From: a bacterium
GTDB taxonomy: Bacteria > Patescibacteriota > Minisyncoccia > Phycocordibacterales > Phycocordibacteraceae
Assembly (NCBI GenBank): GCA_021849125.1
Contig: JAJZTG010000004.1
Span: 1,025 to 65,024 of the forward strand
DNA length: 64,000 nucleotides
Direction of reading: 5' to 3'
In this document: piece after piece, positions 3,858 to 62,568 of the stretch
Position numbering within the stretch: the stretch's first letter is position 1
How the letters are laid out: the number at the start of each line of letters is the position of its first letter
Position numbers and translations under genes: made by a program
The notes under the pieces: generated by a model
What the model saw: the letters and a program-made list of their open reading frames with translations, nothing else
The model's database searches: none
What the model was told of the DNA's origin: nothing

Positions 3858-4742
3858 TTATTCGTCCGCCGTATCGCCTGCGACTACCGCGTCGATAAAG
3901 GGATCAAGGTCACCTTCGAGCACTTTTTCCGGATTTCCTGACTCGTGGCCAGTACGATGGTCTTTCACCATCTTGTACGGATGGAGCACATAGGAGCGAA
4001 TCTGACTCCCCCACTCGTTCGCGGTCGTCGCGGCGATAGAGCGGCCCTTGGCAGCCGCTTCGCGTTCGGCTTCTTCCTTGGCGAAGATCTTTGCGGCAAG
4101 GAGCGCGAAGGCTTTCTCGCGATTAGCCTGCTGGCTGCGCTCGCTTGAGACGTGCACTGAGAGGCCGGTCGGCTTGTGAAGGAGCCGTACGGCCGTCTCG
4201 ACCTTGTTCACGTTCTGCCCGCCCGCGCCTCCGGCGCGGGCAAACGTCATCTCTACATCAGACGGATCGATACTCACGTCTTCATTTGCTGCAAGCACCG
4301 GCAGCACCTCGACAAGCGCGAAGCTCGTCTGACGTTTTGCGTTCGCATTGAAGGGCGAGATGCGCACGAGACGATGCACGCCTGCTTCGTGCTTGAGACG
4401 GCCATAGGCGCCAGGACCCGAAACCTCGATAAGCACGTTCCGATATCCGCCGTGCGGATTCTCATTGCCGTGGAGCTCGTGCGTACGCCAGCCTTTGCTT
4501 GCAGCATACCCTTCGTACATGCGCCTGAGCATCCGTGCGAAGTCTTCGGCATCATCACCACCCGCACCCGCGAGGATTGCAAGAGTCGCGTTCCCGCTGT
4601 CGTGAGGATCGCCAGAGCCGCCCTCCTTGAGCGACTGGTACTCTGCGACCGCACGCTGTGCCGCATCCTTGTCTGCCCAGAAATCGGGCGATGCCATCAT
4701 CGCTTCGAGTTCTGTAATCCGCGTTTCTCGGGATTCGTCCAT
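3858..4742 (-). CDS. prfB: Peptide chain release factor 2 (short N-terminus, no programmed frameshift visible)
   Basis: SPF tripeptide motif ([15 protein letters not shown]) and GGQ motif ([17 protein letters not shown]); 294 aa. Confidence 0.85.
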
Positions 4743-4799: not shown

Positions 4800-4875
4800 T
4801 GGAGCCGGAGGTCGGGCTTGAACCGACGACCTATGGTTTACGATACCATTGCTCTACCAACTGAGCTACTCCGGC
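4800..4875 (-). tRNA. tRNA-Thr (anticodon CGT), CCA encoded
   Basis: Manual cloverleaf: GCCGGAG acceptor, GCTC/GAGC D-stem, ATGGT-ATCGTAA-ACCAT anticodon arm, GTCGG-TTCAAGC-CCGAC T-arm. Confidence 0.9.
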
Positions 4876-4886
4876 AATCTGTTTAT

Positions 4887-4954
4887 TTTAGCCTGATTAA
4901 CCCCTTTGTGGACGACACTGGCCACAGGCCTTCCACCAACTGAGCTACTCCTGC
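4887..4954 (-). pseudogene. tRNA fragment (duplicate of tRNA-Thr 5' ~20 nt) without T-arm or acceptor 3' strand
   Basis: GCAGGAGTAGCTCAGTTGGT matches the 5' end of the neighbouring tRNA-Thr; no complementary 3' acceptor strand found. Confidence 0.35.
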
Positions 4955-5003
4955 AGAAATGCACTTTTGCGAGTCTATCGCAAAAACTGTCCTACGAACA
5001 GTG

Positions 5004-5076
5004 AGCCGGGAGTCGGGATTGAACCGACGACCCCCACCTTACCATGGTGGTGCTCTACCAACTGAGCTATCCCGGC
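5004..5076 (-). tRNA. tRNA-Thr (anticodon GGT)
   Basis: Manual cloverleaf: GCCGGGA/TCCCGGC acceptor, CCACC-ATGGTAA-GGTGG anticodon arm, GTCGG-TTCAATC-CCGAC T-arm. Confidence 0.9.
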
Positions 5077-5347
5077 ATCGCACGCACGGTGCGTACTACG
5101 AGAGTACGCTATTTCTTCCCTTCTTTCAACCGCATAAAAGCAGGAAGCCCCTTCCGGTGCTTCCTGCTTTTATGCGCGAGAGACGAGCTCGGTCAGGAAT
5201 AATTTGTTCGCCGTCGCTCACAAATTTTCACGACCCTGCCTCGCTATGCTCGCATACAGCTCCGGCTTTCGAGTTCCTTTTTGAGCTGCGCTCAAAACTC
5301 TCGCTTCGTAAAGCAAAACACGCCGACGAGGCGTGTTTTGCTAACTG

Positions 5348-5421
5348 CGCGAGAGACGGGACTCGAACCCGCAACCTTCCGCGTGACAGGCGGATGCTCT
5401 AACCAGTTGAGCTACTCCCGC
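5348..5421 (-). tRNA. tRNA-Asp (anticodon GTC)
   Basis: Manual cloverleaf: GCGGGAG/CTCTCGC acceptor, CCGCC-TGTCACG-GCGGA-type anticodon arm with GTC, GCGGG-TTCGAGT-CCCGT T-arm, discriminator G. Confidence 0.9.
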
Positions 5422-5489
5422 AAGCGAGGGTCGAAATAAAGCTGGCTTTCATTTCACCCGAGCGCAGCGGGTGCAAGCCTGAAAGGCTT

Positions 5490-5640
5490 ACTCCCACAAA
5501 GTGAGGCAAACAAAGCGCGAAGCGCAACCCGTGAGAGACGCAGAAAATCACATGCTTTTGTGATTTTCTGCGGGTCGAGCGGGTTGGCGCCCCAAGGCGC
5601 CTGTTTCGCCGAACGCCGCAGGGAGAAGGCTTTGCCTACT
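5490..5640 (-). repeat. Conserved ~130-150 nt tRNA leader block, copy 1 (upstream of tRNA-Asp)
   Basis: Shares aagtgaggcaaacRaagcgcgRagcgc...gaaaatcRc hairpin...gtttcgccgaacgYcgc with the copy at 5774-5905. Confidence 0.5.
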
Positions 5641-5699
5641 ACCGCAACGGTTTTTGCATCTTACCAGAATGCTCTCGGATTGTCTCCTTTTGATACGGG

Positions 5700-5773
5700 T
5701 GCCGGGGGGCGGGAATGATCCGCCGACCTTAGCGTTATGAATGCTACGCTCTAACCAACTGAGCTACCCCGGC
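5700..5773 (-). tRNA. tRNA-Met (anticodon CAT; could be Ile2-lysidine type) with atypical T-loop
   Basis: GCCGGGG/CCCCGGC acceptor, TAGCA-TTCATAA-CGCTA anticodon arm, T-arm GGCGG-ATCATTC-CCGCC (A54/T58 instead of T54/A58). Confidence 0.75.
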
Positions 5774-5905
5774 AAAGTGAGGCAAACGAAGCGCGGAGCG
5801 CGACTCCGTGAGGGTCGTGAGAAAATCGCGCTCAAGAGTGATTTTATCACGAGACGAAACGAAGTCGGGCCGAAGGCCCGTTTCGCCGAACGTCGCCGGG
5901 GTATG
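5774..5905 (-). repeat. Conserved tRNA leader block, copy 2 (abuts the 5' end of tRNA-Met)
   Basis: Sequence similarity to 5490-5640 including the gaaaatc...gatttt hairpin. Confidence 0.5.
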
Positions 5906-5945: not shown

Positions 5946-7520
5946 TTATGCGGGTAGCTCAACGATGAAAGTCGAACCCTTCTCAGCCCCTTCCGACTCT
6001 GCACGGATCGTACCGCCATGCGCTTCCGTGACTTGCTTAGCGATGAAAAGGCCGTAGCCGGTCGAGTTCACGTTCACCTTCTGCGAATCCTTTCCGTGGC
6101 CTCCTTCGGTAAAGAGGTGTGCCTTGTCCTCATCGGTAATACCGACACCCGTGTCTTTCACGCTGAAGACGTACTTGCCTTCGACCTTCTGGAGCGACAC
6201 GGTTATCGAGCCTGTCGGCGTATAGTTGACCGCATTATCGATCAGGTTACGAAGCACATGATCCCCGATCTCGCCCCGATCGCCCATCATGGCGAATGCA
6301 CCCTCAGGAGCCGTAAACGCAAGCGTGAGCCCCTTTACTTCCGCAGCCTGGCGTGCCTTCTCGACAGAATCTTGAACGAGTTCCTTCAGATCAAACGGTT
6401 CCTTCTTGAACGTGGTCGTTCCGCGCTTCAGGTTCGATGCCTTCAAGATATCGCTCACGCTCGTGACGCCATCTTCAGCATCCTGAAGCGCACGTACGAC
6501 GAACGGCTTCATGGTTTCGGAAAGTTCACCCAAATCGCCATCGACCAGGAGCGAGAAGACGCCCTGAGCCTTCGTAAGATACCCCTTCACCTCGTGCCCG
6601 ATGAAGTGGATGAGCCCCTCCTGCCGCTCATTGGTCTCCTTGAGCTCTTCGGTAAGCTGTCGCAGGCTTAGCGTATCTTGTACGATCCGCACGCTCCCGA
6701 GAAGGACGACGAGGAAAGCCGCGATATTAATCGCAATAGCGCTTGCAGAGGTTGAATAGAGGATATTCACGAAACTGAATACCGTGACCATGAAGCCCAA
6801 GAACGCAGTCGTCGCGACCTTCAGATTAAAAAGATGGTGCTTATAGATCGCATATGACGTAAGAGCGACAAAGGGTAAAAGGAAGAGTGCGCCGAGCGGA
6901 ACGAAGCCCGATTCGTTGAAGGCCGCCGGTAGGATGAAATTGAAGGTGAGGAGGAACGTAAACGTGATCGCCATGCCAATGATCACCATCGTATACGGTT
7001 GCCGCTCCCCTTTCGGAGCTCGCATCGTATTGCGCACCAAGCGCCAGATCGCCGTAGCTATGAGATAGAACACAACTATGCCGAAAAGCGGCATCGCGAT
7101 GCCTGGCTGAAGTCCATAGATCGTCCCGCTTGCCGTCACGCTCGTCACGCGTTCAAAGACATACGGGGTAAGTGCCAAGATAGAGACCGTACCCACGACC
7201 GGAATGAGCACGTACATGCCCCATCTCGACTCAAGATAGTGCTCATCGGGAAAGACGGTGGTGAGGTGGTAGAACGTGTACGCATGCCAGACTGCAAAGA
7301 ACATCACTCCGCGCAAGAGCCAGAACGCGAGGTCTCCTGCTGGCAGCTGATATGAGACGTAATTGAAGATGCTCCAAAAGACCGTTATGCCAGCGAAATA
7401 GAAAAAAGCACGGTTCGTCGCGGAGCGCGGATTATGAAAGAGGATAACGAAACCGAGCAAGCCAATACCTGCGACCGCGATGCCTACCGAAAGAAGATCG
7501 AGATTAAGGAATCCATCCAT
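5946..7520 (-). CDS. Sensor histidine kinase with N-terminal multi-TM (7TM-type) sensor domain; no cognate regulator adjacent
   Basis: About 8 predicted TM helices, H-box HEVKGYLT, HATPase_c G-boxes (GYGLFIAKQVTEAHGG). Confidence 0.85.
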   Translation of the reverse strand: MDGFLNLDLLSVGIAVAGIGLLGFVILFHNPRSATNRAFFYFAGITVFWSIFNYVSYQLPAGDLAFWLLRGVMFFAVWHAYTFYHLTTVFPDEHYLESRWGMYVLIPVVGTVSILALTPYVFERVTSVTASGTIYGLQPGIAMPLFGIVVFYLIATAIWRLVRNTMRAPKGERQPYTMVIIGMAITFTFLLTFNFILPAAFNESGFVPLGALFLLPFVALTSYAIYKHHLFNLKVATTAFLGFMVTVFSFVNILYSTSASAIAINIAAFLVVLLGSVRIVQDTLSLRQLTEELKETNERQEGLIHFIGHEVKGYLTKAQGVFSLLVDGDLGELSETMKPFVVRALQDAEDGVTSVSDILKASNLKRGTTTFKKEPFDLKELVQDSVEKARQAAEVKGLTLAFTAPEGAFAMMGDRGEIGDHVLRNLIDNAVNYTPTGSITVSLQKVEGKYVFSVKDTGVGITDEDKAHLFTEGGHGKDSQKVNVNSTGYGLFIAKQVTEAHGGTIRAESEGAEKGSTFIVELPA

Positions 7521-7537: not shown

Positions 7538-8599
7538 TCACTTCTGATGATCTGCGCGAGTCAGGCCGCTATCGAATGAGAAAGCGTACCGTCCCGACGA
7601 TAGCGGACGCCCGAGCACGATTGCCTTGGCAGCATAGCAAAGGGCGGCACCGCGCATGAATGACGATTCGGCGAGCTGTGGGATGCCGACGAGCGTCTCT
7701 CCGAACTGTGCGAATGATTCGACCAATCGGGTATCAAGATATTCTGTGCCCATGAAATCGCGCGCAAGCGCCACCTTCTCTTGCGGCGTCTTCGGCGGTA
7801 TCCCGCCGGCGATGGCCGCGCGAACATGTTCTGGGAGAAGTCCGTTGAGGATAGGCGTATCCGGCTCAAGATCATACCGCTCGACATCGAGAAGGACACC
7901 CTCTCCGTTGCCCGTCACCATGATGACCGGGACGCCGTGCTCGCGCGCCACTTCGCGCACTCGAAGCTTGAGCGGTAACGCATCCATCTCTTCGACCAGC
8001 AGATCGATCTTCGGGTCCGCGATGAATGCTTCGATCGTATCCAACGCAAGGCCCTGTTCCCAAAGCTCCACGTCGTAGTAGGGGTCGACTTCAAGGATCT
8101 GCTGCGCCGAAAGAGTGGCTTTGTTCATGCCGAGGTCAGGCAGCCCGGCGCGGAAACGGTTCAGGTTCGTTACCGAGAGCTCATCCAGATCGGCAAGCTT
8201 GACCGTGTGAGCCCCTCCTTCAAGCGCGATGCAGAGCGCGCCAGGATTACCGACATTGAGTCCTGCGAAACCGATCTTCGCCTGTGCGAAACGTGCCTGT
8301 TCGTCCGAGGTCAGAAGGTTGCGGTTCCGATTAGTGCGCAATTCACGATAGGCCTCGGGACCGACGATACGCACGAGGCTCTTCCTCCATGGGTATACGG
8401 CGACGAATTCGCCAGGTTCCGTCGTGAGCGCGGCTGGCTCTGACCCGACCGACTGCGGATCGCGTATATCAGCCAATTCCTTGCATTGCTCGTCATAAGT
8501 ATCGACGAAGGCATACCCCTCTTCACGCAGTTTCGCGATGACTGACGCATCCTCGCTCTCCTGCGGATTAAGAAGTCGGACGGAAAAAGAGCTCGTCAT
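7538..8599 (-). CDS. ThiF/MoeB/E1-like adenylyltransferase-fold protein with ~110-aa N-terminal extension
   Basis: KIGFAGLNVGNPGALCIALEGG...DLDELSVTNLNRF matches the E1 Rossmann and D-x-D-x-x-SNLNRQ motifs; no CxxC zinc tetrad. Confidence 0.7.
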   Translation of the reverse strand: MTSSFSVRLLNPQESEDASVIAKLREEGYAFVDTYDEQCKELADIRDPQSVGSEPAALTTEPGEFVAVYPWRKSLVRIVGPEAYRELRTNRNRNLLTSDEQARFAQAKIGFAGLNVGNPGALCIALEGGAHTVKLADLDELSVTNLNRFRAGLPDLGMNKATLSAQQILEVDPYYDVELWEQGLALDTIEAFIADPKIDLLVEEMDALPLKLRVREVAREHGVPVIMVTGNGEGVLLDVERYDLEPDTPILNGLLPEHVRAAIAGGIPPKTPQEKVALARDFMGTEYLDTRLVESFAQFGETLVGIPQLAESSFMRGAALCYAAKAIVLGRPLSSGRYAFSFDSGLTRADHQK

Positions 8600-8601
8600 G
8601 A

Positions 8602-9606
8602 TTATGTAAGCTTAGCATCGACTGCGACGCGCGGCGTGCGCCAAGACACTTCCCCTGGCAGTTTGCCGGCCACAAAGACGAATTGGAGCGGCTCGGCAAA
8701 CCCGAACACCGCACCGACTTCCGCGCGCGTATCAGGATATTCGATCGAAGCCACGAATACGGAATAATCGAACGCATGCGCCGTAAGCGTCAACGCAGCA
8801 TGCGATGCGGCATACCCGACCGAAAGCCATCCTGAAATACCCTCTTCTGCGGAAAAACCGAACGCTGCTGGCGCGGATGCGATGGATCCACGATTAAGCT
8901 TCGCGAGCACTTTCCCCATGTTTACGAAACGGATGACCGTCGGGAGGATCCAGCTCATGATAAGCGGCTGATTGAGCGTGTAGCCCGGCAAACCGGTCTT
9001 GCGTGGCGATCCGGTCGGCGTTATCCATTTCGACATCTCTCGTCGGAAGGCCGGTCGCGCGTAGACTCTCATCATGTTCTTCGCCGTCGCTTCAGCGATA
9101 GTATTCCGTGCGACCTCATCCGTAACCGCACGCACGACACACTGCTCGGCAATTCTTCCTGGAATTGCAAGCGCCTCAGCAAGCACGTCTTGAGGGATTA
9201 CCTCTTTACCGAAAAGGCCGCGCCGATTCCTTCGTGTGAAAATGGCTTCCGCAAGCGAGGAAGTGCTTGCGCTTTTAGTCGCTGGAGAGAAGCTTATTTC
9301 GGCAAGATACTCGCTGCCGTCCCCAAGCGTGATCTGCGGATCCATCGAGAGCCACTTGGCCAGCTGCTCTATGTGATGAATGAGAAAACCGATACTCACA
9401 TGCGTATAGCGATACTGCGGATCCGACTGCGGCAATACGATAGCAGTGTCGCGCAGGATGCGAAGGCGGTTGTGCTTGAGATCGAAAAGCCAAGGTTGGC
9501 TGTTGTGTGTCGATGGTGCGCGTACGGCGGCCGTAAGCAACTGCTTGATTTGCTCCTCAATGCTCCCAGCAAACGGAAAACGTTCCTCAAAAGTTGTTGC
9601 GTTCAT
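8602..9606 (-). CDS. Nitroreductase-family FMN protein (SagB/ThcOx-type or Acg-type)
   Basis: APSTHNSQPW motif; 334 aa; translationally coupled to the E1-like gene (3-nt gap). Confidence 0.75.
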   Translation of the reverse strand: MNATTFEERFPFAGSIEEQIKQLLTAAVRAPSTHNSQPWLFDLKHNRLRILRDTAIVLPQSDPQYRYTHVSIGFLIHHIEQLAKWLSMDPQITLGDGSEYLAEISFSPATKSASTSSLAEAIFTRRNRRGLFGKEVIPQDVLAEALAIPGRIAEQCVVRAVTDEVARNTIAEATAKNMMRVYARPAFRREMSKWITPTGSPRKTGLPGYTLNQPLIMSWILPTVIRFVNMGKVLAKLNRGSIASAPAAFGFSAEEGISGWLSVGYAASHAALTLTAHAFDYSVFVASIEYPDTRAEVGAVFGFAEPLQFVFVAGKLPGEVSWRTPRVAVDAKLT

Positions 9607-9611
9607 GGTAA

Positions 9612-11105
9612 TTATCGCGTTTTATGCACCCATTGCTGCTTGATACCTGGCTTAAAGTATAGCGGATCCTCATGCGGCCAAAAGACGAGTTTTGGTTCTG
9701 CGCGCTTGCCGATAAAATCGGAGAGCTCGCGGAACTCTGAGTTCTTTTCGCGCAAGCTCTTTACGATTTCAGCAAGCAGCTTCGCGGCAAGCGCGTTTGA
9801 TATCACTCTGCCCGGTTTCTTTTCGATATTGATCTCGATATATTGATCCTGCTGATCATCATATTTCGTAATGAGCGTAAGCTTTCCGGTCACTTCACTG
9901 TTGAATCGATTATCAAGCAGCACCTCCTTGATAGTCTCAGGATAGACTTGCAGGCCATAGAGGGTAGTCGCCAGGTCGATGCGTTCGAACACATAGACGA
10001 ACGGGAGTTCAAGAATTGTTTTGTCGACACCTGCCTTACGCGCCTCCTTTTTGAGATCAATGCCGTGTGCCTTGAAGCGCTCTATGAGCTCATCGAACGT
10101 GTAGACGCCGCCATGATCCCCTATCGAGTAACGCATGAGCGGTATCGCGCTGTCACCCGAGATGAGGATCTCTCCGTTTTGCGCCTCGAAGGATACGAAT
10201 TCCGGAATGTATTGCGCCAAAGTCGGCGTTTTCGTAATGCCGTCGAAAAGGTCTGCAAAGAGCTCCTTATGCTTCACCGCCAAGCGTCGCGCCAAGATCG
10301 AGAGCGGCGTCTCAAATGCCATAGTCCCCAAATCGGCGCTGCCATAGATATTTACGGTATCGGTAAGCGGATTCTTTATGCCGACGAGCTTCGCCAAGTG
10401 ATCGCGGAAATTCTCGGTAAAGGCTTCAGCGGCAAAGAGAAGCTTCACCGTGTGCTTTTTGAAAGAAATGCCTTGTGCTCGTGCGGCATCAATGACGTCT
10501 TTCAAGAAAGGCGGGTAGCCAGCGAGGATGAGCTGGTCGTACTGCGGCGCGATGTCCGTCAACGCTTTCAGTATCTCGTTCTTATTGATGCCAGGCGTAA
10601 GGATGGCAAGCGGATAGCCGCGACGACCCATGAGCTCGAAAGCCTGATAGGTGATAACCCCGCCGATCCACACGCCCATGCCGAAACAGACGATGACCAG
10701 CGTCGATTTCTCAGGCGAGAGCGAACTGTTCGAGAAGAACATCTCGTGGATGAGGGACGATTGGTTATCGACTGCCTGCGAGCGTGCGAAATACGTCGGG
10801 GTGCCGGTTGAGCCGGATGTCGAGGTGAGTACCTGTGACGAACGTGTCGTGCCATCCCAGAAAAGTTTTGAAAACGGGTTGCGGTGCAAATAGTTTTTCT
10901 TAGTGAGGATCGGCGCATTCGCAGGTGTCATCCCTGCGCGAAGCATCTTCCGATATGCTGGCACCTGCTTTGCCATGCGTTCAAAAAGCGTCGCTCTATG
11001 CTTCTTCTGTGCTCGTGTAAATGATGAGCTTGAGCGTTTACGCAGCCGGGCAATCTGCGAAGAAAACGGTAGACGACCATCCTTCATATTTCCTGACTGT
11101 ACCAT
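9612..11105 (-). CDS. PaaK/F390-synthetase-like adenylate-forming enzyme
   Basis: TSGSTGTPTYF AMP-binding P-loop variant typical of the phenylacetate-CoA ligase / LuxE / CapK clade; 497 aa. Confidence 0.7.
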   Translation of the reverse strand: MVQSGNMKDGRLPFSSQIARLRKRSSSSFTRAQKKHRATLFERMAKQVPAYRKMLRAGMTPANAPILTKKNYLHRNPFSKLFWDGTTRSSQVLTSTSGSTGTPTYFARSQAVDNQSSLIHEMFFSNSSLSPEKSTLVIVCFGMGVWIGGVITYQAFELMGRRGYPLAILTPGINKNEILKALTDIAPQYDQLILAGYPPFLKDVIDAARAQGISFKKHTVKLLFAAEAFTENFRDHLAKLVGIKNPLTDTVNIYGSADLGTMAFETPLSILARRLAVKHKELFADLFDGITKTPTLAQYIPEFVSFEAQNGEILISGDSAIPLMRYSIGDHGGVYTFDELIERFKAHGIDLKKEARKAGVDKTILELPFVYVFERIDLATTLYGLQVYPETIKEVLLDNRFNSEVTGKLTLITKYDDQQDQYIEINIEKKPGRVISNALAAKLLAEIVKSLREKNSEFRELSDFIGKRAEPKLVFWPHEDPLYFKPGIKQQWVHKTR

Positions 11106-11336
11106 AGGACTCCCTCACTAAATTTCATTTCCAGCCGAGTGCCGTAATTCCTTACTTGTCGATACTTATGCCTTAAATAGATCGCGGCAAGCTCATTGCC
11201 GTAGCGGTAGGTATTGAGAAATGACTATGCATCCCCATCGATTCCCGTTAGTTCCCCCTGTCTCTTTCTTCATGCCATTCTAAGTATGCACATAACCCTG
11301 GCTACATCGCCAATGTTGAGAGGTATGATTCAAATT

Positions 11337-11876
11337 ATGAATACCATACAAAATTCTTCCTTCGCAGCAGCGCGTTTCTTCTTTTCTGACACCCGAAGCG
11401 CCTCGTTCTGGCTTCTCGTCCGGCTCTATATCGGCTGGATCTGGCTTTCGGCCGGTTGGGAGAAAGCATCCAATCCTGCATGGTTCGGATCGGATGCCGG
11501 CGCATCGATCAACGGTTTCGTCTTGGGTGCGCTCGCGAAGACTACCGGCGCTCATCCTGATGTCCAAGGATGGTACGCTTCGTTCCTCATGCACGTGATG
11601 CTTCCCCACCCGATGGCGTGGGCAAACGCGATAACCCTCGGTGAAATCCTCGTCGGACTCGGTCTCATCGTCGGACTCTTCACCGCCGCAGCTGCATTCT
11701 TCGGTTTCTTCATGAATATGAATTTCTTGCTCGCGGGTACCGTAAGCGTGAACCCGGTCATGCTCCTTTGCGCTATCGGGCTCATGTGCGCGCACCGCGT
11801 CGCAGGCTACTGGGGTCTCGATCGTTTCGCAAAACGCTGGTACCGCAAGACGTCAGCAGGCCCTCTTACTTCATAA
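11337..11876 (+). CDS. DoxX-family membrane protein
   Basis: 4 TM helices and the DoxX-like FLLAG motif; start chosen at MNTIQNSS with upstream AGAGG. Confidence 0.65.
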   Translation: MNTIQNSSFAAARFFFSDTRSASFWLLVRLYIGWIWLSAGWEKASNPAWFGSDAGASINGFVLGALAKTTGAHPDVQGWYASFLMHVMLPHPMAWANAITLGEILVGLGLIVGLFTAAAAFFGFFMNMNFLLAGTVSVNPVMLLCAIGLMCAHRVAGYWGLDRFAKRWYRKTSAGPLTS

Positions 11877-27891: not shown

Positions 27892-29268
27892 ATGCAAACG
27901 CAAGATATTGCGATCAGCTACGTGCCGATCGCGAGCCTCACTCCCGCGCCTTATAACCCCCGCACCTGGACGGCGGAGGCGCTCGAGCAGCTCAAAGAAA
28001 GCCTGCGGCGATTCGGATTCGTCGATCCGGTCGTCGCCAACAAAGCGCCGGGCCGCGAGAACTTGGTGCTCGGCGGGCACATGCGGATCGTCGCGGCAAT
28101 GGAACTCGGCATCGAAAGCGTGCCCGTGGTGTACGTGAATATTCCGGACGAGCAGAAAGAGCGCGAACTCAATCTTCGCCTCAACAAGAACCAGGGCGAG
28201 TTCGATCTCGCGCTCTTGGCAGAATTCGACGAGTCGTTCCTCGAGGAGGTCGGCTTCTCGAGCGAAGAGCTCGATGCGATCTTCGAAGAGGAGAAGGAAG
28301 AAGAACTCTTCGATCTCGAGAAGGAGCTCGAGCGGATCGGAATCGAGGAAGTGAAGGTGCAGAAGGGCGACGTGTACGACCTGGACGGCTCGCGCCTCAT
28401 GTGCGGCGATTCGACGATCGAAGCCGATATGCTCAGACTCATGGGCGATCAGAAAGCGGACATGGTGATGACCGATCCCCCGTACATTCTTGATTACCTC
28501 CACGGCAAGGGGCGGCACGGTTCAGCAACGACCGGCTTCGGCGCGAAACGTAACCGGCGGTATCTCGAGACGGAAAGCCTGCCGGAAAACTTCACCGAAC
28601 TCTGGATGAACGCCGTCGCCAAAGTCCAAGCACCGGATTTCGCCATCATCGTGTACGAGAATTGGAAAAACATCCGGACGATATGGGACGAGATGGCGAA
28701 GCGCTGGAAGGTGCGGAACATGCTGGTGTGGCACCTCCCCAACCGGAACCAGGGCTACGCGGGCAAGCACAAGTTCTTCTCGAAGTACGATATCGCGATG
28801 GTCGGCACGAGCGACGCGGAACGCGAAGCCGACATGGGCGACGAGGACGAGCTCGTGCAGAACGAATACGAGACGGCGCTCTTCGCGATCTCGGGCAGGC
28901 CGCAGTGGGAGTCGTACGAGAAAGGCAAGAAATACTGCCCGACGGATTTCATCGACTTCAACGCGGCCGACGAAAAGTCCTCGGGACAGGCGATCATCTT
29001 CGGCACGAAGCCGGTCGAGATCCTGATTCCGTACATAAAGGTGCTCACCAAGCGCGGCCAGATCGTGCTTGAGCCATTCGGCGGGAGCGGGTCGACGCTC
29101 ATCGCCTCGAACACGATCGGACGCCGCTGCTACATCATGGAAAAATCCACGGTGTACGCGGAAGTCATCCTTAATCGCTGGACCAAATTCTCGGGCAAGA
29201 CGCCCACCAAACTCTATGCGGCAAATAGCGTCGGAGAAGTTGGCCCTGATTCTGGAGCTCAAGTCTAA
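27892..29268 (+). CDS. ParB-like nuclease domain fused to beta-class N6-adenine/N4-cytosine DNA methyltransferase
   Basis: N-terminal ParB/Srx motif (LVLGGHMRIVAAMELG); motif IV TDPPY followed by C-terminal motif I EPFGGSGST (beta-class order); high-GC segment inside the island. Confidence 0.85.
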   Translation: MQTQDIAISYVPIASLTPAPYNPRTWTAEALEQLKESLRRFGFVDPVVANKAPGRENLVLGGHMRIVAAMELGIESVPVVYVNIPDEQKERELNLRLNKNQGEFDLALLAEFDESFLEEVGFSSEELDAIFEEEKEEELFDLEKELERIGIEEVKVQKGDVYDLDGSRLMCGDSTIEADMLRLMGDQKADMVMTDPPYILDYLHGKGRHGSATTGFGAKRNRRYLETESLPENFTELWMNAVAKVQAPDFAIIVYENWKNIRTIWDEMAKRWKVRNMLVWHLPNRNQGYAGKHKFFSKYDIAMVGTSDAEREADMGDEDELVQNEYETALFAISGRPQWESYEKGKKYCPTDFIDFNAADEKSSGQAIIFGTKPVEILIPYIKVLTKRGQIVLEPFGGSGSTLIASNTIGRRCYIMEKSTVYAEVILNRWTKFSGKTPTKLYAANSVGEVGPDSGAQV

Positions 29269-30278: not shown

Positions 30279-30537
30279 AGGATTACGCGAGTTGGTAATT
30301 CCTGAGAAGCGGGTACACAAAACCCGCCACCAGGAGCCCTTGCGGGCCTATAGGAGTTTCCCCCTATAACGCATCGAACGCCCTGATGACGGGTTTTCTA
30401 GGTTCGATGCGATTTGTGACCATGCCAGCGGCCGGAGCCATTAGTTTAGGTCGTTACTAGCACAGGGCTAGTACTTAAAGAGTAGCTTAGATAAACGGGT
30501 TTGCGAAGAGGTCCACCAACAGCTAGCAAACAGAGAG

Positions 30538-31506
30538 CTATTTTCGACTTTTTAGGCTTTCGTGTGCGCCTACAAGTAATTGGAGAGCAGCAGCCTGGAA
30601 ACGGTGGTCAGTAACTAGCTGAGGAATTTGGATTGCGCGCACAGATTCCGGAAGAGAATAGTTGGCAAAAACCGAAGATTTTTTGCAGCGCATATCATCA
30701 GCGGGCACCACATCAAGCAATGGCCCATACTCCGCCTCGAAAGTTGTGAGCTTCGATTGAAGTGCCTTCTCGAAATCAAGTGGACGTGATTTTATGTATC
30801 GATGGTTTTTAAAGCCGACCCGCGAAGCCAGCTCCATCAAATCTTTTGCTTCCACGCCCTTCCCTAGAGCCTTCCTCATCAATAGACTCTCATTACTAAC
30901 ATGGTCTCGAATGAATGAGTACTGTTCCAATAAATCAATCCTTTTTCGATGGAGTGTTGCAACAATCAAGGATTCTTGAGCATATGCGCGAAAGGTTCCT
31001 CGGTCGTGGTGCTGCAGAAGTCTGAGAATCTCTGAAACCGCACTTTCGAAATTGCCGATTAAAAGATGTCGTTCAAGTCCGTAATAATAAAGAAATACAT
31101 AACTCAGATTTGTTGGCTTAGTGATATCCCTTAACCAGGAGAGATATTGATATCGATGTTTGGGGGAGAGACGAGAATACGATGGGTAATACATCGGTTC
31201 TTTCTCCAGTTCGTCGTTCTCCTCTACGGGCAATTTTGTCCAAATCAAACTAGGTTCTCCAAAAAAATTATGCCCATCATCAACGTGCGTTTCTACCTCA
31301 CCTGACGAAACGGAAATTGTCATCTTAATTGCCATCGGTGAGGCAATTTTCGATACATCTTCAAAAGTAACCCAGAGAAGTGATTTTGTGGGTTCGGGTA
31401 TGACGAACTGCTTTTTGAGAGACGCGGGAGTATGCACAATGAGTCCCGTAGCCGCTTGTTCCTCAACATCGTGTCTAAGGAAGCGAGAAAGATCCATGTT
31501 AGACAC
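30538..31506 (-). CDS. Hypothetical protein (island operon member)
   Basis: 322-aa ORF, 8-nt overlap with the upstream DUF2779 gene; low-GC. Confidence 0.5.
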   Translation of the reverse strand: MSNMDLSRFLRHDVEEQAATGLIVHTPASLKKQFVIPEPTKSLLWVTFEDVSKIASPMAIKMTISVSSGEVETHVDDGHNFFGEPSLIWTKLPVEENDELEKEPMYYPSYSRLSPKHRYQYLSWLRDITKPTNLSYVFLYYYGLERHLLIGNFESAVSEILRLLQHHDRGTFRAYAQESLIVATLHRKRIDLLEQYSFIRDHVSNESLLMRKALGKGVEAKDLMELASRVGFKNHRYIKSRPLDFEKALQSKLTTFEAEYGPLLDVVPADDMRCKKSSVFANYSLPESVRAIQIPQLVTDHRFQAAALQLLVGAHESLKSRK

Positions 31507-33004
31507 CCACGGCCAGCTGGTAGAGATGCTTCCAAATCACGTACATCGCGAATGTGTCGCGTCCGCAATATATCCTTAGATCTGATGCGATTTGCCTACG
31601 TTCTTCTTCAGGAGCCGTGGGGGATATCATTGACCACCAGGCATCGGAAGCCTGACCGCCTTCATGGATGTTAAGATCTCCGTAATTAAGGTCAGGCGCA
31701 AGCGCGGGAAGCACCTTCTTGATAGAAGTTTTACCTCGAAATTCAGGGTGGACGTAATACTGCTTATGGAATACGTCCTTCAGGTCGTACATCTGTTCAT
31801 TGATCCTTTCCAGAGCCGCCTTGTGATCTGGCAAGCGTGCAGCCATCTCTCTGTTCACACCCTGCTCGAAACTTTTGTTCCAAGAAATAATACTACCCTT
31901 TGCACCGATGCTTCGCACCAACAGATCAGCGAGTGGTTTTGATGGGTCAGATGCGATTTCATGCAGATACTCAACATGTTCCGGTTCGACTGAAGGGTCT
32001 CGAAGAATATGGAGAGAGAATTGAAACGGGATACGACTATATGGGCTATAGCCGTTGAACATGGGAATGGCAGGCGCAAAGGTCTCATAATCTAGGAAAT
32101 AAAGCGGAAAGGTCAACTGCTCCAATTCCTCCCGTATCCTATCGACTTCGATAATTGCCGTTTGCGAGCGATGCACTCGTAGCTGATTCACTTGGATTTC
32201 ACTTAGTTCGATATCAGCCGGAACATCGTTAAGATCGAAAAGTCGCCGCTCGACCATTATTGAGAGTTTCTTCTTACTATTTCCGATACGAGCCAGATCA
32301 TGTATGGAGTACTCCGGCACGTCCGGATTTGAGTATTTGAAGGTTGAGCAATGAGAGCTTCTTCCTGAATAGACACAATCACATCCTTCGGAGGGTTCGT
32401 CTGTTCTTGAAAGATATCCCTTTGCCGCGTCCATCTTTTCTTCAATTTCCGACAAACGGGCGGCTATCTTCTCACTCATGTCCTCCACTAGAAACATCTT
32501 GTCGAGCTCCAAATCTCCGGCGCGCACATATTCTTTGTTGAGATGTATGAGGAAGTATTTGCCAACTTCCACCCTAGCCCGCTTTAGGACGGACGCCTGA
32601 AATGCGAGATCGTCTATGTGGCTTCGATCTGACCCCTCTTCCTTGATCGAATTGGTGCCTTTTATCTCGTAGATATCCCATCGCCTGCTCGTCTCGTCAT
32701 AACCGAGAACATCAACCTTCGTGATAAACCCATCAACAACGAAAGTTGCCTGGAAGATGGCCGAAACCCTTGCGAGCACGAGCCTTTCGGTTTCTCTAAC
32801 TGCCTCGTCCTCGGTAGCAGTTACCTGCACACCTCCTGGGAAAAGATTGCGCGCGTATGTCTCCACTTCGTTTCCCTGCTCGACTAATTGCAACTCGAAT
32901 GGCGAGAGCGAGAACATGTCGAGCAACTCCGGCTTGTGCCGTTTAAGCCAGATATTTTTCGGACACATTAGAAACTCGAGAAAGGTAGTTTTGGAGATCA
33001 TCAT
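31499..33004 (-). CDS. DUF2779-like protein (predicted PD-(D/E)xK-type nuclease N-domain plus RNase-H-like C-domain)
   Basis: N-terminus ISKTTFLEFLMCPKNIWLKRHKPE resembles the DUF2779 signature; C-terminal RIYCGRDTFAMYVIWK. Confidence 0.55.
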   Translation of the reverse strand: MMISKTTFLEFLMCPKNIWLKRHKPELLDMFSLSPFELQLVEQGNEVETYARNLFPGGVQVTATEDEAVRETERLVLARVSAIFQATFVVDGFITKVDVLGYDETSRRWDIYEIKGTNSIKEEGSDRSHIDDLAFQASVLKRARVEVGKYFLIHLNKEYVRAGDLELDKMFLVEDMSEKIAARLSEIEEKMDAAKGYLSRTDEPSEGCDCVYSGRSSHCSTFKYSNPDVPEYSIHDLARIGNSKKKLSIMVERRLFDLNDVPADIELSEIQVNQLRVHRSQTAIIEVDRIREELEQLTFPLYFLDYETFAPAIPMFNGYSPYSRIPFQFSLHILRDPSVEPEHVEYLHEIASDPSKPLADLLVRSIGAKGSIISWNKSFEQGVNREMAARLPDHKAALERINEQMYDLKDVFHKQYYVHPEFRGKTSIKKVLPALAPDLNYGDLNIHEGGQASDAWWSMISPTAPEEERRQIASDLRIYCGRDTFAMYVIWKHLYQLAVGV

Positions 33005-33014
33005 GGAACGATAC

Positions 33015-36000
33015 CTAAATAACGGGTTTTATTCCTAGTTCTTCCAATTTTCCCCACAAACTATCAAGTGCCCCTTCTTTGTGGCGATAGAACGAACTAC
33101 CTGTGATACGCCAAAATTCCCATCCCGCACGACGCAATTGTCGTTCGCGTACTTGATCTTCTTCCCAATTCTCGAGCGTATGATACTGATCTCCGTCACA
33201 CTCCACCGCAAGACGAGCTTCGGCACCCTGCACGACTAAATCGATACGGTAACCAATTACGGGATATTCCGGCAGGACCTGATATCCCTTATCAAGGATG
33301 AGATTCCCAACCTCATATGAGAATTGTGATGCTCGTCCAGAATCGAATTCTTTCTTAAGTGCTTCCCGACCCGCCTTGAGCTCTTCTTTCTTCGGATCGT
33401 AGTACCAATTGAGGAGCTTGAATCGCCAGTCGTTCTGATTTCTGAATTCTTCCAAGGGAATTGAATGGAAAAGGAATACCTGGTCGCGTGCGCGAGTGGC
33501 AGCCACATTGAAGCGCTGCGCTGCCCCCTTGTCAGTGAGAGGGGCGATGGTGTCATTTGGTTTGTTGGGATCGAGAGCTCGGACCATCGATAGGAGCATT
33601 ACGTCGCGTTCATCGCCTTGAAAGGCGTAAGCGTCTCCGCAGATGATTTTTCGCTCTTCGATCACCTTCTCTCCGATCTTGGGATGCTTCAAAATGAGAT
33701 CCTTGATGTATTTTGCTTGGTCCTCAGCAAGCAAGGAGATAACCCCGAATGTGCAGAGATGACCATCTGGCCGCTTCTGATAATTCGGATCTTCAAGAAG
33801 CTCAACGAGTTTATCGACAATCGCCTTCGCCTCGGGCTCGTTTACCTTGTTGTTTGTATTTTGATATCCACCCCCAATTAAGATAGGCACGAGAGCCGGT
33901 TTAAGAAGACCTTTCGGATTAGGATGCCGAAGCGGCTGAAGCTTGTGGTCATAAATATAATGATTACTAAATTCGATAATATCTGGAACACATCTAAAAT
34001 GTTCATTCAGTTGGATCATGTTAGGAATTCTTATCTTCGCCAGGTCAAAGAGGCTCGAAGTTATCGAGAAATTATCCTTATGAGGGATATCGAAGAGGAA
34101 TCGAGAAATGAGTTCAAAGATCTTTTCTTGATCCTGGAAGATTCCCGCCGGGCTGATCTGGTCAGGGTCACCCACGACAAGCAATTTCTTACCAAGATAA
34201 CCGATAGTAAGACCGCGAATATCGCACTGACTTGCCTCATCGAAGATCACGACATCGAACATGCCGGGAATAGGATCTGAGAACATTTGAGCTACGCGGT
34301 GCAAGGGCATGATCCATACAGGGACCGCATTCTTTGCCTCCTTAAGAGACTGCTGCGCCGAATTGAGCCACTTGTTGGCATATTTGCCGGTTCCCTTTCC
34401 GTACTTCTTCATCGCATCGGACCATGCCATCAGAGCATCGCGCTGACGCTTGGTAACCTTGTCGATTTGGCGCTGCCAGGCAAGCACCGTAACAAGCTCA
34501 GAATTCAGTTCGAATTCTTTCTTGGTCAGACGCTCGAGCTGACCCTGGAGATTGTCGATGTCGTCATGATCGTGAATGCTATTGAGCCACGATTCGAGTC
34601 GAGCGACCTTCCAAGCCACGAGCAAATTGTCCGGACATTCAAATTTCTGCTTCTGATCAGCAAGCTCGATGATCTCTCCGCAAAGTTGAGGAACCTGCTT
34701 CTTAAGCAGTTCGCACAATTCATTGATCCTAATGGCCTTCTCTTTCTTTCCTACAAGTAGATCAAGCTTCTCAGTGCAGCTTTTCCAACCGGAAGAATTA
34801 TGCTTCACAATTGCCTGTGCAAGCTCATCAACAATTGCGTGCTGTGTGCGGAAATTCACAGATGATCGAATGGCTTCTTCCCATTCAGTAAATGACTTCT
34901 CGAGGTTCTTTAGCTCGAAAGCAGCCGCGCGTGACGCAGTAAGTTCGATGGCAGTATCAATATCTTCCTTTTTGATAAATGAGAGATCGGAGAGTTCCTT
35001 TACCTCATTGAAGCAAGCGTCGATGGCTGAGAAATCAGAGCGGTAATTCACCAATCTCTGAAGGCCCGCAACGAATACCTCGAGCTTAACCATATCGAGG
35101 CGATCCATGTCGATTTCAAGCGGATTCTTGAGCGTCGACAGACCTTGTTCGAGAAGCGTCTTGATGTCGCGCTCCGCAGACTCAACAAGTATCGAGTTCC
35201 GCAGGATCTCTACCCTCTCCGGACTGTCTGGCTCGACACCATCCACCTTGTACATTTCAAGAATGCGCTTTGCGTTTCCAGGAAGGAGCATTTTACCGAA
35301 TGTTCCCAACTTGCCCTTTGATGCTTTTGCATATAACGCTTCTATCGCTTCACGGAGATCATGAGGTGAGAGATTCGATTGTCCTGAAATGATGTGACCG
35401 ATTGAGCTGTTCTTACCCTTTGCAACAATCTGAATCTTATCTGAAATCTTTGAAAGAATGGTGGACCACTTTTCGCGCTCATTCTGACTAATAGTGCATG
35501 CGTCGAAGATTTCCTGTTCGTAGTCTTTATTGATTGATCCCAAGACCCTCTTTGCCTTGTTGAGCAATTCCCACAGCTGACCCAGTTTCTCTTGATCAAT
35601 CTTTGCCTTACTGAATGCCTCGTCAGAAGATTTAGATTTTGCGCTGAGATCACGATATGAGGCAAAAGCACTGAGCACCACATCTTCATTTGGAAGGGTT
35701 GAAGGATCAGGCAGATCCTCTTTGTAGAGGGTACGATCTACAGCTTCTACTTCTCGAGCGAGATCGTAGAGCTCCTGCAGATCTTCTTCGGTAAATTCAG
35801 GATCAGCATCGAATGGAACCTTATCGGTGAACCACGCAACAGCTTCGTTATCTTTATTCTTATCAACAAACTTTGCAGCATCGATCGGCTTAATTTCTGC
35901 ACCATCAATAACTAACTTCTCTGATGAATCAGTGAGAATGTACTGCCGGATCTTTGATGCAAGAGTGGCTTTCTCTTCACGAACCTTCTTAAGATCTCTT

Positions 36001-37811: not shown

Positions 37812-37815
37812 ATCA

Positions 37816-38136
37816 TTATTTAACTATATCTTGACCCAAAGGCCCCTCAATAAGCTTGATTGTTTCTTTTACGAACTCCTCCCACGTATACGAACCCTTA
37901 TACCAAAGGAGGACGGCATCCGTTCTATGTTTTAAGAGTTTGAGGAACTTCTGCCAAGTAAAACCATTGGGTTTTAATGCGTCTTTCCACTCCCTCCACA
38001 GATATTGAGGCAGCTTATTCCCGTACCAGACATTTAAGGAATCCCAATTTATTCGGCCTGACTTATCAGTCATACCTTCAATCTTTCGAATCCACTCTTT
38101 TACCTCTATGGGCTCTTTGGGCACTGATAATTTCAT
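37816..38136 (-). CDS. Small hypothetical protein immediately upstream of the helicase gene
   Basis: Longer ORF (to 38451) overlaps the recombinase start on the other strand, so the internal MKLSVPKEP start is preferred; 4-nt gap to the helicase ATG. Confidence 0.4.
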   Translation of the reverse strand: MKLSVPKEPIEVKEWIRKIEGMTDKSGRINWDSLNVWYGNKLPQYLWREWKDALKPNGFTWQKFLKLLKHRTDAVLLWYKGSYTWEEFVKETIKLIEGPLGQDIVK

Positions 38137-38241
38137 ACCCCAAGTATATAGGGCATCAAGGAAATTGCAAAGTCTGCCTAGACTCCCTGCGCGGATTGCG
38201 TCATCCCTTGGGGTGTGCGAATTATCAAGTAAACAACGGAC

Positions 38242-39579: not shown

Positions 39580-39584
39580 AGCAA

Positions 39585-39684
39585 AAGCCGCGACAAGTCG
39601 TCGCGGCTTTTGCTTACGTGATGCCCGTCGGTACCGTACTGGCCTTTGGGCGGGCCGGTACTGGTTCCTGGCGTCACAACCGTG
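39585..39684. repeat. Island repeat family, copy D = trailer and terminator of the tRNA-fMet-like gene (also terminates the recombinase gene)
   Basis: gccgcgac-aagtc-gtcgcggc hairpin flanked by A/T tracts, then gcttacgtgatgcccgtcggtaccgtactgg...gggcgggccggtactgg... Confidence 0.6.
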
Positions 39685-50754: not shown

Positions 50755-51153
50755 TTATGGATGACCGGCTTCGCCCTTGATAATGCGTTCCGTCTCTGCG
50801 AGCACCTCGGAAGGGATAGCTGCCGCCTTGATGATGTAGCCGTCTACGGTGAGCTTTTTCGCTTCTTCGATATCCGAGTTCTGGCCCTGATTCGAAAGGA
50901 ATATGATCTTCGCTTCTTTCGCGAGATTTTCCTTCCGTATGGTCGCGACCGTCTCAAAGCCGGTCATGCCCGGCATGATGACATCGATCAGGATCGCATC
51001 AGGCATCACCGCGTCCTCTTTCCGAAGAGCGGCCAAGAGCTCTTCTCCTCCAGAAAATGAATGTATGTCATGCCCTGCGTTCTTGAATTTCACCGCATAG
51101 AGATCAAGCAGGAAACGGTCATCATCGACGAGATATATGCGGTAGGCCATCAC
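50755..51153 (-). CDS. CheY-like single-domain response regulator (PilH/PilG-like) embedded in the pilus operon
   Basis: 132-aa REC domain with acidic pocket DDD and phospho-acceptor D in ILIDVIMPGMTGFE. Confidence 0.8.
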   Translation of the reverse strand: MMAYRIYLVDDDRFLLDLYAVKFKNAGHDIHSFSGGEELLAALRKEDAVMPDAILIDVIMPGMTGFETVATIRKENLAKEAKIIFLSNQGQNSDIEEAKKLTVDGYIIKAAAIPSEVLAETERIIKGEAGHP

Positions 51154-51177
51154 TTTCAGTATACTACGCGCCTAGCA

Positions 51178-62556: not shown

Positions 62557-62568
62557 TATCATACGGTT

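Follow-up and report, generated by a model that had tools for sequence, protein, structure and literature searches.

The four-gene operon and its products

The system described here is a set of four tightly packed genes (A–D) on the minus strand of a 64-kb stretch of the Patescibacteria contig JAJZTG010000004.1 (hereafter, the window), which probably specifies a route to small oxazolone-type molecules. Gene A (9612–11105; 497 aa) encodes a PaaK-like adenylate-forming (ANL) enzyme, assigned from its open reading frame (ORF) and a family profile. Gene B (8602–9606; 334 aa) encodes an Acg-type, nitroreductase-superfamily flavin-dependent oxidase (FDO), assigned from its ORF and from NCBIfam and PDB matches. 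Gene C (7538–8599; 353 aa) is predicted from the NCBIfam model NF005901 to encode a TrzS/OxzB-type ThiF-like ATP-dependent cyclase. These three co-directional ORFs agreed with a preliminary description of the window, and all motifs quoted there were recovered (TSTSGSTGTPTYF in gene A, APSTHNSQPW in gene B, TNLNRF in gene C). However, its 3- and 6-nt spacers were coordinate differences, the real gaps being 5 nt between A and B (9607–9611) and 2 nt between B and C (8600–8601). It also missed a fourth co-operonic gene, D (5946–7520; 524 aa), which starts 17 nt after gene C and was identified through Pfam as a seven-transmembrane (7TM)-receptor sensor histidine kinase.

A ribosome-binding site (RBS), GAGGGAG, lies 5 nt ahead of the gene A ATG (11105). 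The 108 nt 5' of gene A (11106–11213, minus) are non-coding and hold this RBS and probably a promoter, with no sigma-70 consensus match inside the interval, and separate gene A from a divergent DoxX-family gene (11214–11876). Beyond the kinase, a terminator-like GC hairpin at 5866–5880 (minus; CGGGCCTTCGGCCCG, then a T-containing tail) was recognised as a consensus match only. Directly 3' of the kinase there is a minus-strand tRNA cluster (Thr-CGT, Thr-GGT, Asp-GTC, Met-CAT; 4800–5774), after which comes a peptide chain release factor 2 (RF2)-like ORF (3858–4742). Given the RBS before gene A, the co-directional kinase after 17 nt, the hairpin after the kinase and the flanking divergent DoxX and tRNA genes, genes A–D form a single operon.

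Gene C had been called a ThiF/E1-like protein with an N-terminal extension of ~110 aa, and this was borne out. In addition to a Pfam ThiF domain match, it scored 297 bits (E = 3.4e−88) against the NCBIfam Rv1355c family (NF005901), with residues 4–350 aligned to profile positions 10–343 of 722. Residues 2–337 were 38% identical (E = 2e−62) to residues 4–325 of a 710-aa Rhodococcus Rv1355c-family protein. The match to PRK08223, possibly a TyzB-like model, reached 48 bits, so the TrzS-type family is the nearer one by NCBIfam. TrzS (Rv1355c) is a ThiF-FDO fusion that, together with the acyltransferase TrzA, makes N-acyl-tryptazolones (PMC12856293; 2025). The adenylation residues R88, R91, G113-L-N-V-G-N-P119, D137, D139, N145, N147, R148, K160 and D206 were invariant in 36 gene C homologues. 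The TcdA motifs DMDD...NTNR and ...AID aligned with these residues (by sequence, TcdA is the closest solved structure, E = 3.6e−06), as did LADFDDL...NLNR and EECD in the Rhodococcus protein. A CxxC zinc motif is lacking from the gene C sequence.

In an AlphaFold2 (AF2) model of gene C built with the 36 homologues (predicted local distance difference test (pLDDT) 92.9), the Rossmann core begins at ~residue 108 and residues 1–95 form a separate beta-alpha-beta-alpha-beta-beta-alpha unit. The extension is conserved and, in the model, structurally distinct. It had been suggested that it could act as a substrate-recognition domain, but gene C matches the ThiF half of Rv1355c from residue 4 on, extension included; it is a family trait, common to the small-molecule TrzS-type proteins, and not a stray recognition domain. 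Foldseek matched the model to ThiF (1zfn), PaaA, MoeB, TcdA and MccB; for the top match, AclA (9egb; Tenacibaculum discolor), no literature was found by which to interpret it. PADLOC gave generic E1-E2 matches only for gene C (best 33 bits) and nothing for genes A and B, and an anti-phage Cap2/Bil-type reading was dropped for this reason.

Of the earlier label 'SagB/Acg-type nitroreductase' for gene B, the Acg part stood and the SagB part did not. Gene B scored 163.4 bits against the NCBIfam Acg family NF047509 (residues 23–331), below the 199-bit cutoff, and its sole solved relative in the PDB was the M. smegmatis Acg nitroreductase MsAcg (2ymv, E = 1.8e−10). No SagB-type or SagB-McbC model matched in Pfam or NCBIfam; further matches were to PRK14851 and BluB (E = 0.005) in NCBIfam and to TM1586_NiRdase and Nitroreductase in Pfam. 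Residues A30-P-S-T-x-N-x-Q-P-W39, R125 and R129 were invariant in the gene B family. The match to the FDO half of the Rv1355c family model was partial (49 bits; profile positions 374–568), and gene B was 28% identical over 111 aa to the Rhodococcus TrzS-type FDO half. With C matching the ThiF half and B the FDO half of the same model, genes B and C would, judged by homology, amount to a split TrzS/Rv1355c.

As a single sequence, gene A had no Pfam or PDB match and its AF2 model was unusable (pLDDT 38.6), so its fold assignment rests on a 16-sequence family profile searched against the PDB. This recovered the phenylacetate-CoA ligases 2y4o (E = 5.9e−14), 4r1l (6.5e−10) and 2y27, which upheld the earlier PaaK-like call at family level. 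Invariant in the family were the ANL core motifs TS(T)SGSTGxP, NIYGSAD, RYSIGDxG and ERxDxxxxLYGxxxYPE and the C-terminal Lys489; gene A thus shares its fold family, ANL adenylation motifs and C-terminal catalytic Lys with the PaaK/PaaK-like branch. In contrast to PaaK, it is ~60 residues longer, with insertions past ~residue 270, and its kin are naturally fused to ThiF and amino-acid dehydrogenase domains. Identity across Patescibacteria was 55–76%, and homologues are annotated 'phenylacetate-CoA ligase' in source records. A true PaaK was rejected, as there was no match to the PaaK equivalog model TIGR02155 at E ≤ 0.01, no paa genes lie nearby and the similarity is at superfamily level only.

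Gene D matched HATPase_c (85 bits) and, just below the 28.6-bit cutoff, HisKA_7TM (28.4 bits), with the 7TM region N-terminal. The equivalently placed kinase of a related locus (L001) shared 67% identity with it, and H309 and the N, G1 and G2 boxes were invariant among the kinases. No Lys or Cys was invariant in the 7TM region of 56 kinases, so the idea that an oxazolone is bound covalently to a 7TM Lys, whether as ligand or chromophore, finds no support. The operon kinase has no adjacent response regulator in this window. A second histidine-kinase-like ORF (61483–62556, plus) is immediately followed by a single-domain response regulator (62557–62937), and a receiver-domain ORF lies at 50755–51171 (minus); either this regulator or this receiver ORF could be the partner of the operon kinase.

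Conservation, cassette exchange and neighbourhood

We scanned one genome per GTDB species and found at least 320 stretches encoding a gene A relative. Locus analyses used the best 80 of these 320, scanned with a hidden Markov model per gene family; 55 of them, in which at least 5.2 kb of sequence followed the ligase gene, were treated as informative. The best 80 loci were all from Patescibacteria. Hundreds of homologues were found for each of proteins A, B and C, the closest belonging to Patescibacteria of the class Paceibacteria (Kaiserbacteria, Wolfebacteria, Harrisonbacteria and others). Among the informative loci, ThiF was present in 55, FDO in 51 and the 7TM kinase in 51, with all three in 49. 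The trio thus co-occurs beyond the window, a point the preliminary description had left for checking, and does so together with the kinase. Chance falls far short of explaining such conservation. Operon genes were co-directional in all informative loci; for the kinase this applied to 51/55, with a median gap of 10 nt and nine overlapping start/stop pairs.

The order of the genes varied. Ligase-ThiF-FDO-kinase was the majority order (36 loci), followed by ligase-FDO-ThiF-kinase, the type seen in the window (8 loci), and FDO-ThiF-ligase-kinase (L008, L009 and L071). Two discrete classes emerged on comparison with the window. In loci with the FDO-ThiF order, identity to the window was 43–73% for ThiF and 32–63% for FDO, compared with 33–43% and 22–40% (mostly 22–37%) in loci with the ThiF-FDO order. 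Three loci of this opposite order (L001, L012 and L013) had ligases 72–74% and kinases 65–67% identical to those of the window, but ThiF was just 35% and FDO 27–29% identical. On this evidence the ThiF/FDO pair was exchanged as a unit between otherwise near-identical operons and works together in a fixed slot, which supports a tight functional pairing. Two FDO lineages occupy this slot. FDOs of the ThiF-FDO order are Rv1355c-like and match the Rv1355c FDO half over its full length (186 bits), whereas the window type is nearer to the Acg model, against which the FDOs of the relatives L009 and L091 scored 190 and 155 bits.

L091 (5441–8831; CP070635.1, labelled Thermoplasmatales archaeon, 1.07 Mb) was the single locus seen outside Patescibacteria. 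It carries a ThiF gene (271 bits, Rv1355c family), an Acg-like FDO gene, a ~158-aa ligase remnant and a 7TM-only gene without a kinase domain, and is apparently either a decaying, horizontally acquired copy or part of a mislabelled genome. A second, independent FDO-kinase link was found in L092 (6001–9442), where the gene for a distant Acg-like nitroreductase (24% identity to B) runs into the beginning of one for a GAF-GAF histidine kinase, followed by a GerE-type response regulator and then a universal stress protein in a DosS/DosR-like arrangement.

When 1.84 billion representative proteins were searched exhaustively with gene A in HMMER, 1425 relatives were returned. These included natural fusions of four architectures: ligase-ThiF (P0262), ThiF-ligase (P0328), ELFV dehydrogenase-ligase (P0261) and dehydrogenase-ligase-ThiF (P0349). 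The ThiF parts of P0262, P0328 and P0349 scored 257–302 bits against the Rv1355c family, and all fusions with a source name came from Parcubacteria/Patescibacteria. The fused proteins thereby link the amino-acid step, ligase and cyclase as parts of a single pathway. The gene neighbourhoods gave a related signal, which the preliminary description had missed. In 26/55 loci, a gene for an enzyme interconverting an amino acid and a 2-oxo acid lies 5' of the operon, either a HisC-like aminotransferase of class I/II (224 bits, below cutoff; 14 loci) or an ELFV dehydrogenase whose nearest match is the Trp dehydrogenase ScyB (240–296 bits, below cutoff; 12 loci); a true branched-chain aminotransferase was found in L008 (393 bits). 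No aminotransferase or amino-acid dehydrogenase of this operon-linked kind occurs in the 64 kb of the window. The upstream genes point to a hydrophobic or aromatic amino-acid building block, and the ScyB-like dehydrogenase, the TrzS-like ThiF and a frequent tryptophanyl-tRNA synthetase (TrpRS) neighbour are weak hints that this could be tryptophan or another aromatic amino acid.

In several close relatives, L001, L015 and L074 among them, the order is DoxX (divergent), ApbE flavin transferase, HisC-like aminotransferase, ligase; the window has neither the ApbE nor the aminotransferase gene in this slot (11106–11876), DoxX being the immediate neighbour of the ligase gene. The proximity of ApbE (FAD:protein FMN transferase) to a flavoenzyme operon may be significant or a coincidence. 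In about 11 loci a ~310-aa methyltransferase-like gene sits between FDO and kinase (e.g. L014, 4218–5147; also L012, L017, L020, L021, L029, L038, L067 and L078), and is absent from the window. Its similarity to S-adenosylmethionine-dependent methyltransferases is weak (Pfam E ~9e−4, below cutoff) and it may be a tailoring enzyme. A true TrpRS gene (TIGR00233, above cutoff) lies directly 3' of the kinase in 17 loci (e.g. L005, 11316–12251; L009, 11248–12291), usually followed by an aspartyl-tRNA synthetase (AspRS)-like gene, and this adjacency is probably plain synteny. It drew attention since N-acyl-tryptophan is the substrate of the cyclase's nearest characterised relative and the dehydrogenase in the fusions is ScyB-like. 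The recurrent neighbours other than those above were housekeeping genes (DnaK, DnaJ, TrpRS, AspRS-like, RF2). In L012 (9465–13909), a graspetide-type island comprising an MvdC/SAV_5884-like ATP-grasp maturase (202 bits), an S9 prolyl-oligopeptidase-family protein and a TPR protein is inserted between the ligase and ThiF genes, both of which are left intact. Insertions of similar size were seen in L019, L022 and L084.

A candidate oxazolone pathway and its alternatives

On balance, we favour the view, with modest confidence, that the operon encodes a Patescibacteria version of the oxazolone synthetase (ThiF/FDO) pathways (OxzAB, TyzACB, TrzAS), coupled to a membrane sensor kinase. We infer that its most likely product is a small oxazolone-type molecule made from an acylated amino acid and not a modified peptide; the substrate of the ligase is likewise inferred. 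The core of the preliminary description, adenylation-dependent modification plus oxidation by a route without YcaO, matches the chemistry of the closest characterised relatives, while the link to Rv1355c/TrzS had been missed.

In the TrzAS system, TrzA N-acylates L-Trp from acyl-CoA, the ThiF domain of TrzS performs ATP-dependent cyclisation of N-acyl-Trp to an oxazolone and the FDO domain then carries out an O2-dependent desaturation; a D217A change abolished cyclisation, and R540A lowered flavin mononucleotide (FMN) content and desaturation (PMC12856293). Contact with acids or alcohols opens oxazolones (PMC12856293). Tyrazolones and phenazolones are the products of TyzACB, which has a separate ThiF (TyzB) and FDO (TyzC), and of OxzAB from Pseudoalteromonas rubra (PMC10404671), TyzB/TyzC and OxzB acting in the same way on N-acyl-Tyr or N-acyl-Phe (PMC10404671; PMC12596934). 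According to a 2025 review, the ThiF-like enzyme of the oxazolone systems is the only one known to act on a small molecule, most characterised members having protein, peptide or tRNA substrates; TcdA closes an oxazolone ring too, on the t6A of tRNA (PMC12596934).

The operon shares several features with TrzAS (Rv1356c/Rv1355c; mycobacteria and Rhodococcus). The ThiF half is homologous to gene C over its full length, including the extension and the adenylation residues. A nitroreductase-superfamily FDO is an obligatory partner in TrzAS, and here gene B adjoins gene C, 2 nt apart. The majority Patescibacteria cassette also keeps the ThiF-then-FDO order of TrzS, together with its full-length FDO match. 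It differs in that the window's ThiF and FDO are separate proteins in reverse order, with an FDO nearer to the Acg model, that a PaaK-like ATP-dependent ligase stands in place of the TrzA-type acyl-CoA N-acyltransferase, that a 7TM histidine kinase lies inside the operon and that the host is a reduced-genome member of the Patescibacteria and not an actinobacterium. The separate proteins resemble TyzACB (Rv2336–Rv2338c), where the stand-alone ThiF cyclase TyzB is found beside TyzC, a stand-alone monomeric FDO of ~340–370 aa (PMC10404671). In TyzACB and OxzAB the chemistry is again ATP-dependent cyclisation and flavin-dependent desaturation of an N-acyl aromatic amino acid (PMC10404671; bioRxiv 10.1101/2020.06.11.147165), but the acyl donor enters through an acyl-CoA- or acyl carrier protein-dependent GNAT/N-acyl homoserine lactone synthase-like enzyme (TyzA, OxzA), and these systems are without the ligase, kinase, aminotransferase and dehydrogenase genes of the Patescibacteria loci.

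No OxzA/TyzA/TrzA-type acyltransferase was found in the operon, and no such family occurred among the neighbours in the 80 loci. A phmmer search with a Streptomyces GNAT/FeeM-like domain and a Rhodococcus neighbour returned nothing from 5292 ORFs, which is a weak single-sequence test that did not extend to whole genomes. The Streptomyces domain stems from L094 (4122–7036; plasmid of Streptomyces sp. NBC_01431), where a 622-aa 'ThiF family adenylyltransferase' combines a GNAT/FeeM-like N-domain with a TrzS-like ThiF. The similarity of this N-domain is weak (Pfam E 0.002–0.05, below cutoffs), a beta-ketoacyl synthase III gene follows, and no FDO gene is among the annotated features of this ~11-kb stretch; the fusion may be another oxazolone-type architecture. 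The slot next to ThiF is thus acyltransferase-like in Streptomyces and taken by a PaaK-like ligase in Patescibacteria. This is our main argument that the ligase would supply the acylation.

The proposed pathway would begin with gene A activating a carboxylic acid with ATP as an acyl-adenylate. It would then either join the acyl group to the amine of a hydrophobic or aromatic amino acid, as GH3- or amide-synthetase-type ligases do, or supply an acyl thioester on a thiol carrier. By homology to TrzS and TyzB, for which the activity was shown, gene C would adenylate the carboxylate of the N-acyl amino acid, and the amide oxygen would close the 5(4H)-oxazolone. The FMN-dependent gene B, by homology to TyzC and the TrzS FDO domain, would desaturate the C-alpha/C-beta bond to give a conjugated oxazolone. 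In about half of the relatives, a HisC-like or branched-chain aminotransferase or a Leu/Phe/Trp-type dehydrogenase would interconvert the amino acid and its 2-oxo acid as an accessory step. Linkage suggests that the kinase may sense the product, a precursor or a related cue, or may control the operon.

A more distant resemblance was noted to the indolmycin pathway (Ind3/Ind6), in which a transaminase converts Trp to an arylpyruvate, methyltransferases tailor it and the ATP-dependent Ind3 couples acid and amino acid into a five-membered O,N-heterocycle (PMC8246080). The Patescibacteria loci similarly combine aminotransferase or dehydrogenase genes, an ATP-dependent ligase, the methyltransferase-like gene in ~11 loci and, often, a TrpRS neighbour. 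Ind3 is presumably PaaK-like. This is a likeness only, as both ThiF and FDO are missing from indolmycin assembly and its ring type differs from an oxazolone.

Several points weigh against an oxazolone pathway. No member of the Patescibacteria set has a known product, substrate or activity, and the acyltransferase that defines the known pathways is absent from the operon and its neighbours. The best named relatives of gene A are CoA ligases, and its reaction may be that of an amide ligase, a CoA ligase or another enzyme. The upstream aminotransferase or dehydrogenase could equally mean that the ligase activates a 2-oxo acid and not a fatty or aryl acid. Known FDOs use O2, yet many Patescibacteria are described as anaerobic fermenters. 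The window FDO also fits the Acg model (163 bits) better than the Rv1355c FDO half (49 bits), and the Acg-like FDO-B group, as distinct from the oxazolone-linked FDO-A group, was tied to non-oxazolone roles by Grigg et al.

The same enzymology could serve a signal-synthase and receptor cassette, in which A, B and C make a diffusible or membrane-resident oxazolone-type molecule, the co-translated 7TM kinase senses it and response regulators complete the circuit in some species. We consider this a tentative possibility, and a doubtful one. Single-domain response regulators do lie directly 5' of the ligase gene or 3' of the kinase in L040, L044, L049, L069, L083, L071 and L088. Were it true, host-attached Patescibacteria would have a dedicated small-molecule system to sense themselves or their host, and oxazolones would have their first assigned function.

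Amino-acid or 2-oxo-acid salvage or catabolism, where the PaaK-like gene A makes the CoA thioester of a 2-oxo or aryl acid and ThiF and FDO are accessory or unrelated, is unlikely. It would suit the phenylacetate-CoA ligases that are the nearest named relatives and source annotations of gene A, as well as the aminotransferase or dehydrogenase gene upstream in 26/55 loci. However, gene A lacks the PaaK equivalog match, its fused relatives score just 28–48 bits against that model (cutoff 646 bits) and no paa ring-oxidation or oxidoreductase genes recur near the operon in the 80 related loci. It also leaves the fusions of the ligase to TrzS-type ThiF unexplained. Because such fusions exist and the ThiF/FDO linkage is near-universal, the ligase more plausibly feeds the cyclase.

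We regard as quite unlikely a redox- or oxygen-linked stress module built from FDO and kinase, comparable to the Acg proteins of the DosR dormancy regulon, with ThiF and ligase modifying a cofactor or a protein such as the kinase. The window-type FDO is indeed closest to the Acg family model, the Acg-like gene of L092 adjoins a GAF histidine kinase, response regulator and universal stress protein, many loci show translational coupling of the kinase to the cluster and ApbE flavin transferase and DoxX genes are near the operon in some relatives. Yet the function of the Acg proteins themselves is unknown, and two FDO lineages with the same ligase and kinase are more easily squared with a common small-molecule reaction than with one particular protein partner. 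Nor does the kinase 7TM region offer an invariant Lys/Cys attachment site, and the closest characterised ThiF relatives act on small molecules.

A YcaO-independent maturation like that of ribosomally synthesised and post-translationally modified peptides (RiPPs) is improbable. Here, gene C would bind a precursor peptide via its N-terminal extension and adenylate it, and the nitroreductase would oxidise the heterocycle. ThiF-like enzymes with N-terminal peptide-binding domains exist (MccB and PaaA, both among the fold matches of gene C), and, as noted above, the substrates of most characterised ThiF-like enzymes are proteins, peptides or tRNA (PMC12596934). Likewise, thiazole/oxazole-modified microcin (TOMM) machinery pairs an E1-superfamily protein with a heterocycle-oxidising nitroreductase-fold flavoenzyme, and the preliminary description had framed the trio in these terms, as an E1-like docking protein with a SagB dehydrogenase. 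This framing was not sustained, as the nitroreductase is Acg/FDO-type without a SagB match and the TrzS-type relatives, which share the extension, act on N-acyl-tryptophan, a small-molecule substrate. The same description was right that YcaO and a precursor-peptide ORF are lacking: gaps of 2, 5 and 17 nt are too small for a precursor gene, the upstream 108 nt are non-coding and neither YcaO nor a conserved small ORF recurs in the operon or the 80 related loci. In contrast to TOMM docking proteins, gene C keeps all adenylation residues and is itself the predicted cyclodehydratase, and the amino-acid dehydrogenase fusions point to free amino-acid/2-oxo-acid chemistry.

Housekeeping sulfur-carrier activation by a true ThiF or MoeB among unrelated neighbours, which had been named as one outcome that would undo the cassette and for which the Pfam ThiF match and weak equivalog matches might speak, is effectively refuted by scores far below the cutoffs (ThiF, 42 bits against 159; MoeB, 26 bits against 266–449), by the lack of a recurring ThiS/MoaD-like small ORF or rhodanese in the 80 loci, by the missing CxxC motif and by the wide margin of the Rv1355c family match (297 bits).

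Significance and other features of the window

The type of chemistry proposed for the operon is already known, having been worked out in 2021–2025. Apparently new are the Patescibacteria operon, the substitution of a ligase for the acyltransferase, the coupling to a kinase and response regulators and the dual FDO/ThiF cassettes, no description of which was found in the searchable literature. With their tiny genomes, Patescibacteria (the candidate phyla radiation) are commonly portrayed as nearly without biosynthetic capacity. The occurrence of ligase relatives in at least 320 species-level genomes, with ThiF, FDO and kinase genes beside the ligase in nearly all informative loci, implies an important and unrecognised function. 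The products of the known systems, tyrazolones and tryptazolones, are still without a known role, even in M. tuberculosis, and a form of the pathway wired to a sensor kinase and response regulators opens the hypothesis that oxazolones are signals to direct testing. A non-homologous swap of an acyl-CoA acyltransferase for an ATP-dependent ligase would suit organisms poor in CoA and fatty-acid metabolism. It would also widen the genome-mining rules for oxazolone clusters, which now rely on an acyltransferase neighbour.

Elsewhere in the window, GC content falls to 0.46–0.48 at ~30500–39600, compared with 0.55–0.60 outside this stretch. Genes within it encode a 1598-aa superfamily 1 helicase that carries an MTES_1575 restriction-endonuclease domain at its C terminus, a DUF2779 protein, a TerB_N protein and a large serine recombinase (38242–39579). 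A ParB-N6/N4 DNA methylase is encoded at 27892–29268. The ~30500–39600 region looks like an integrated mobile or defence island.

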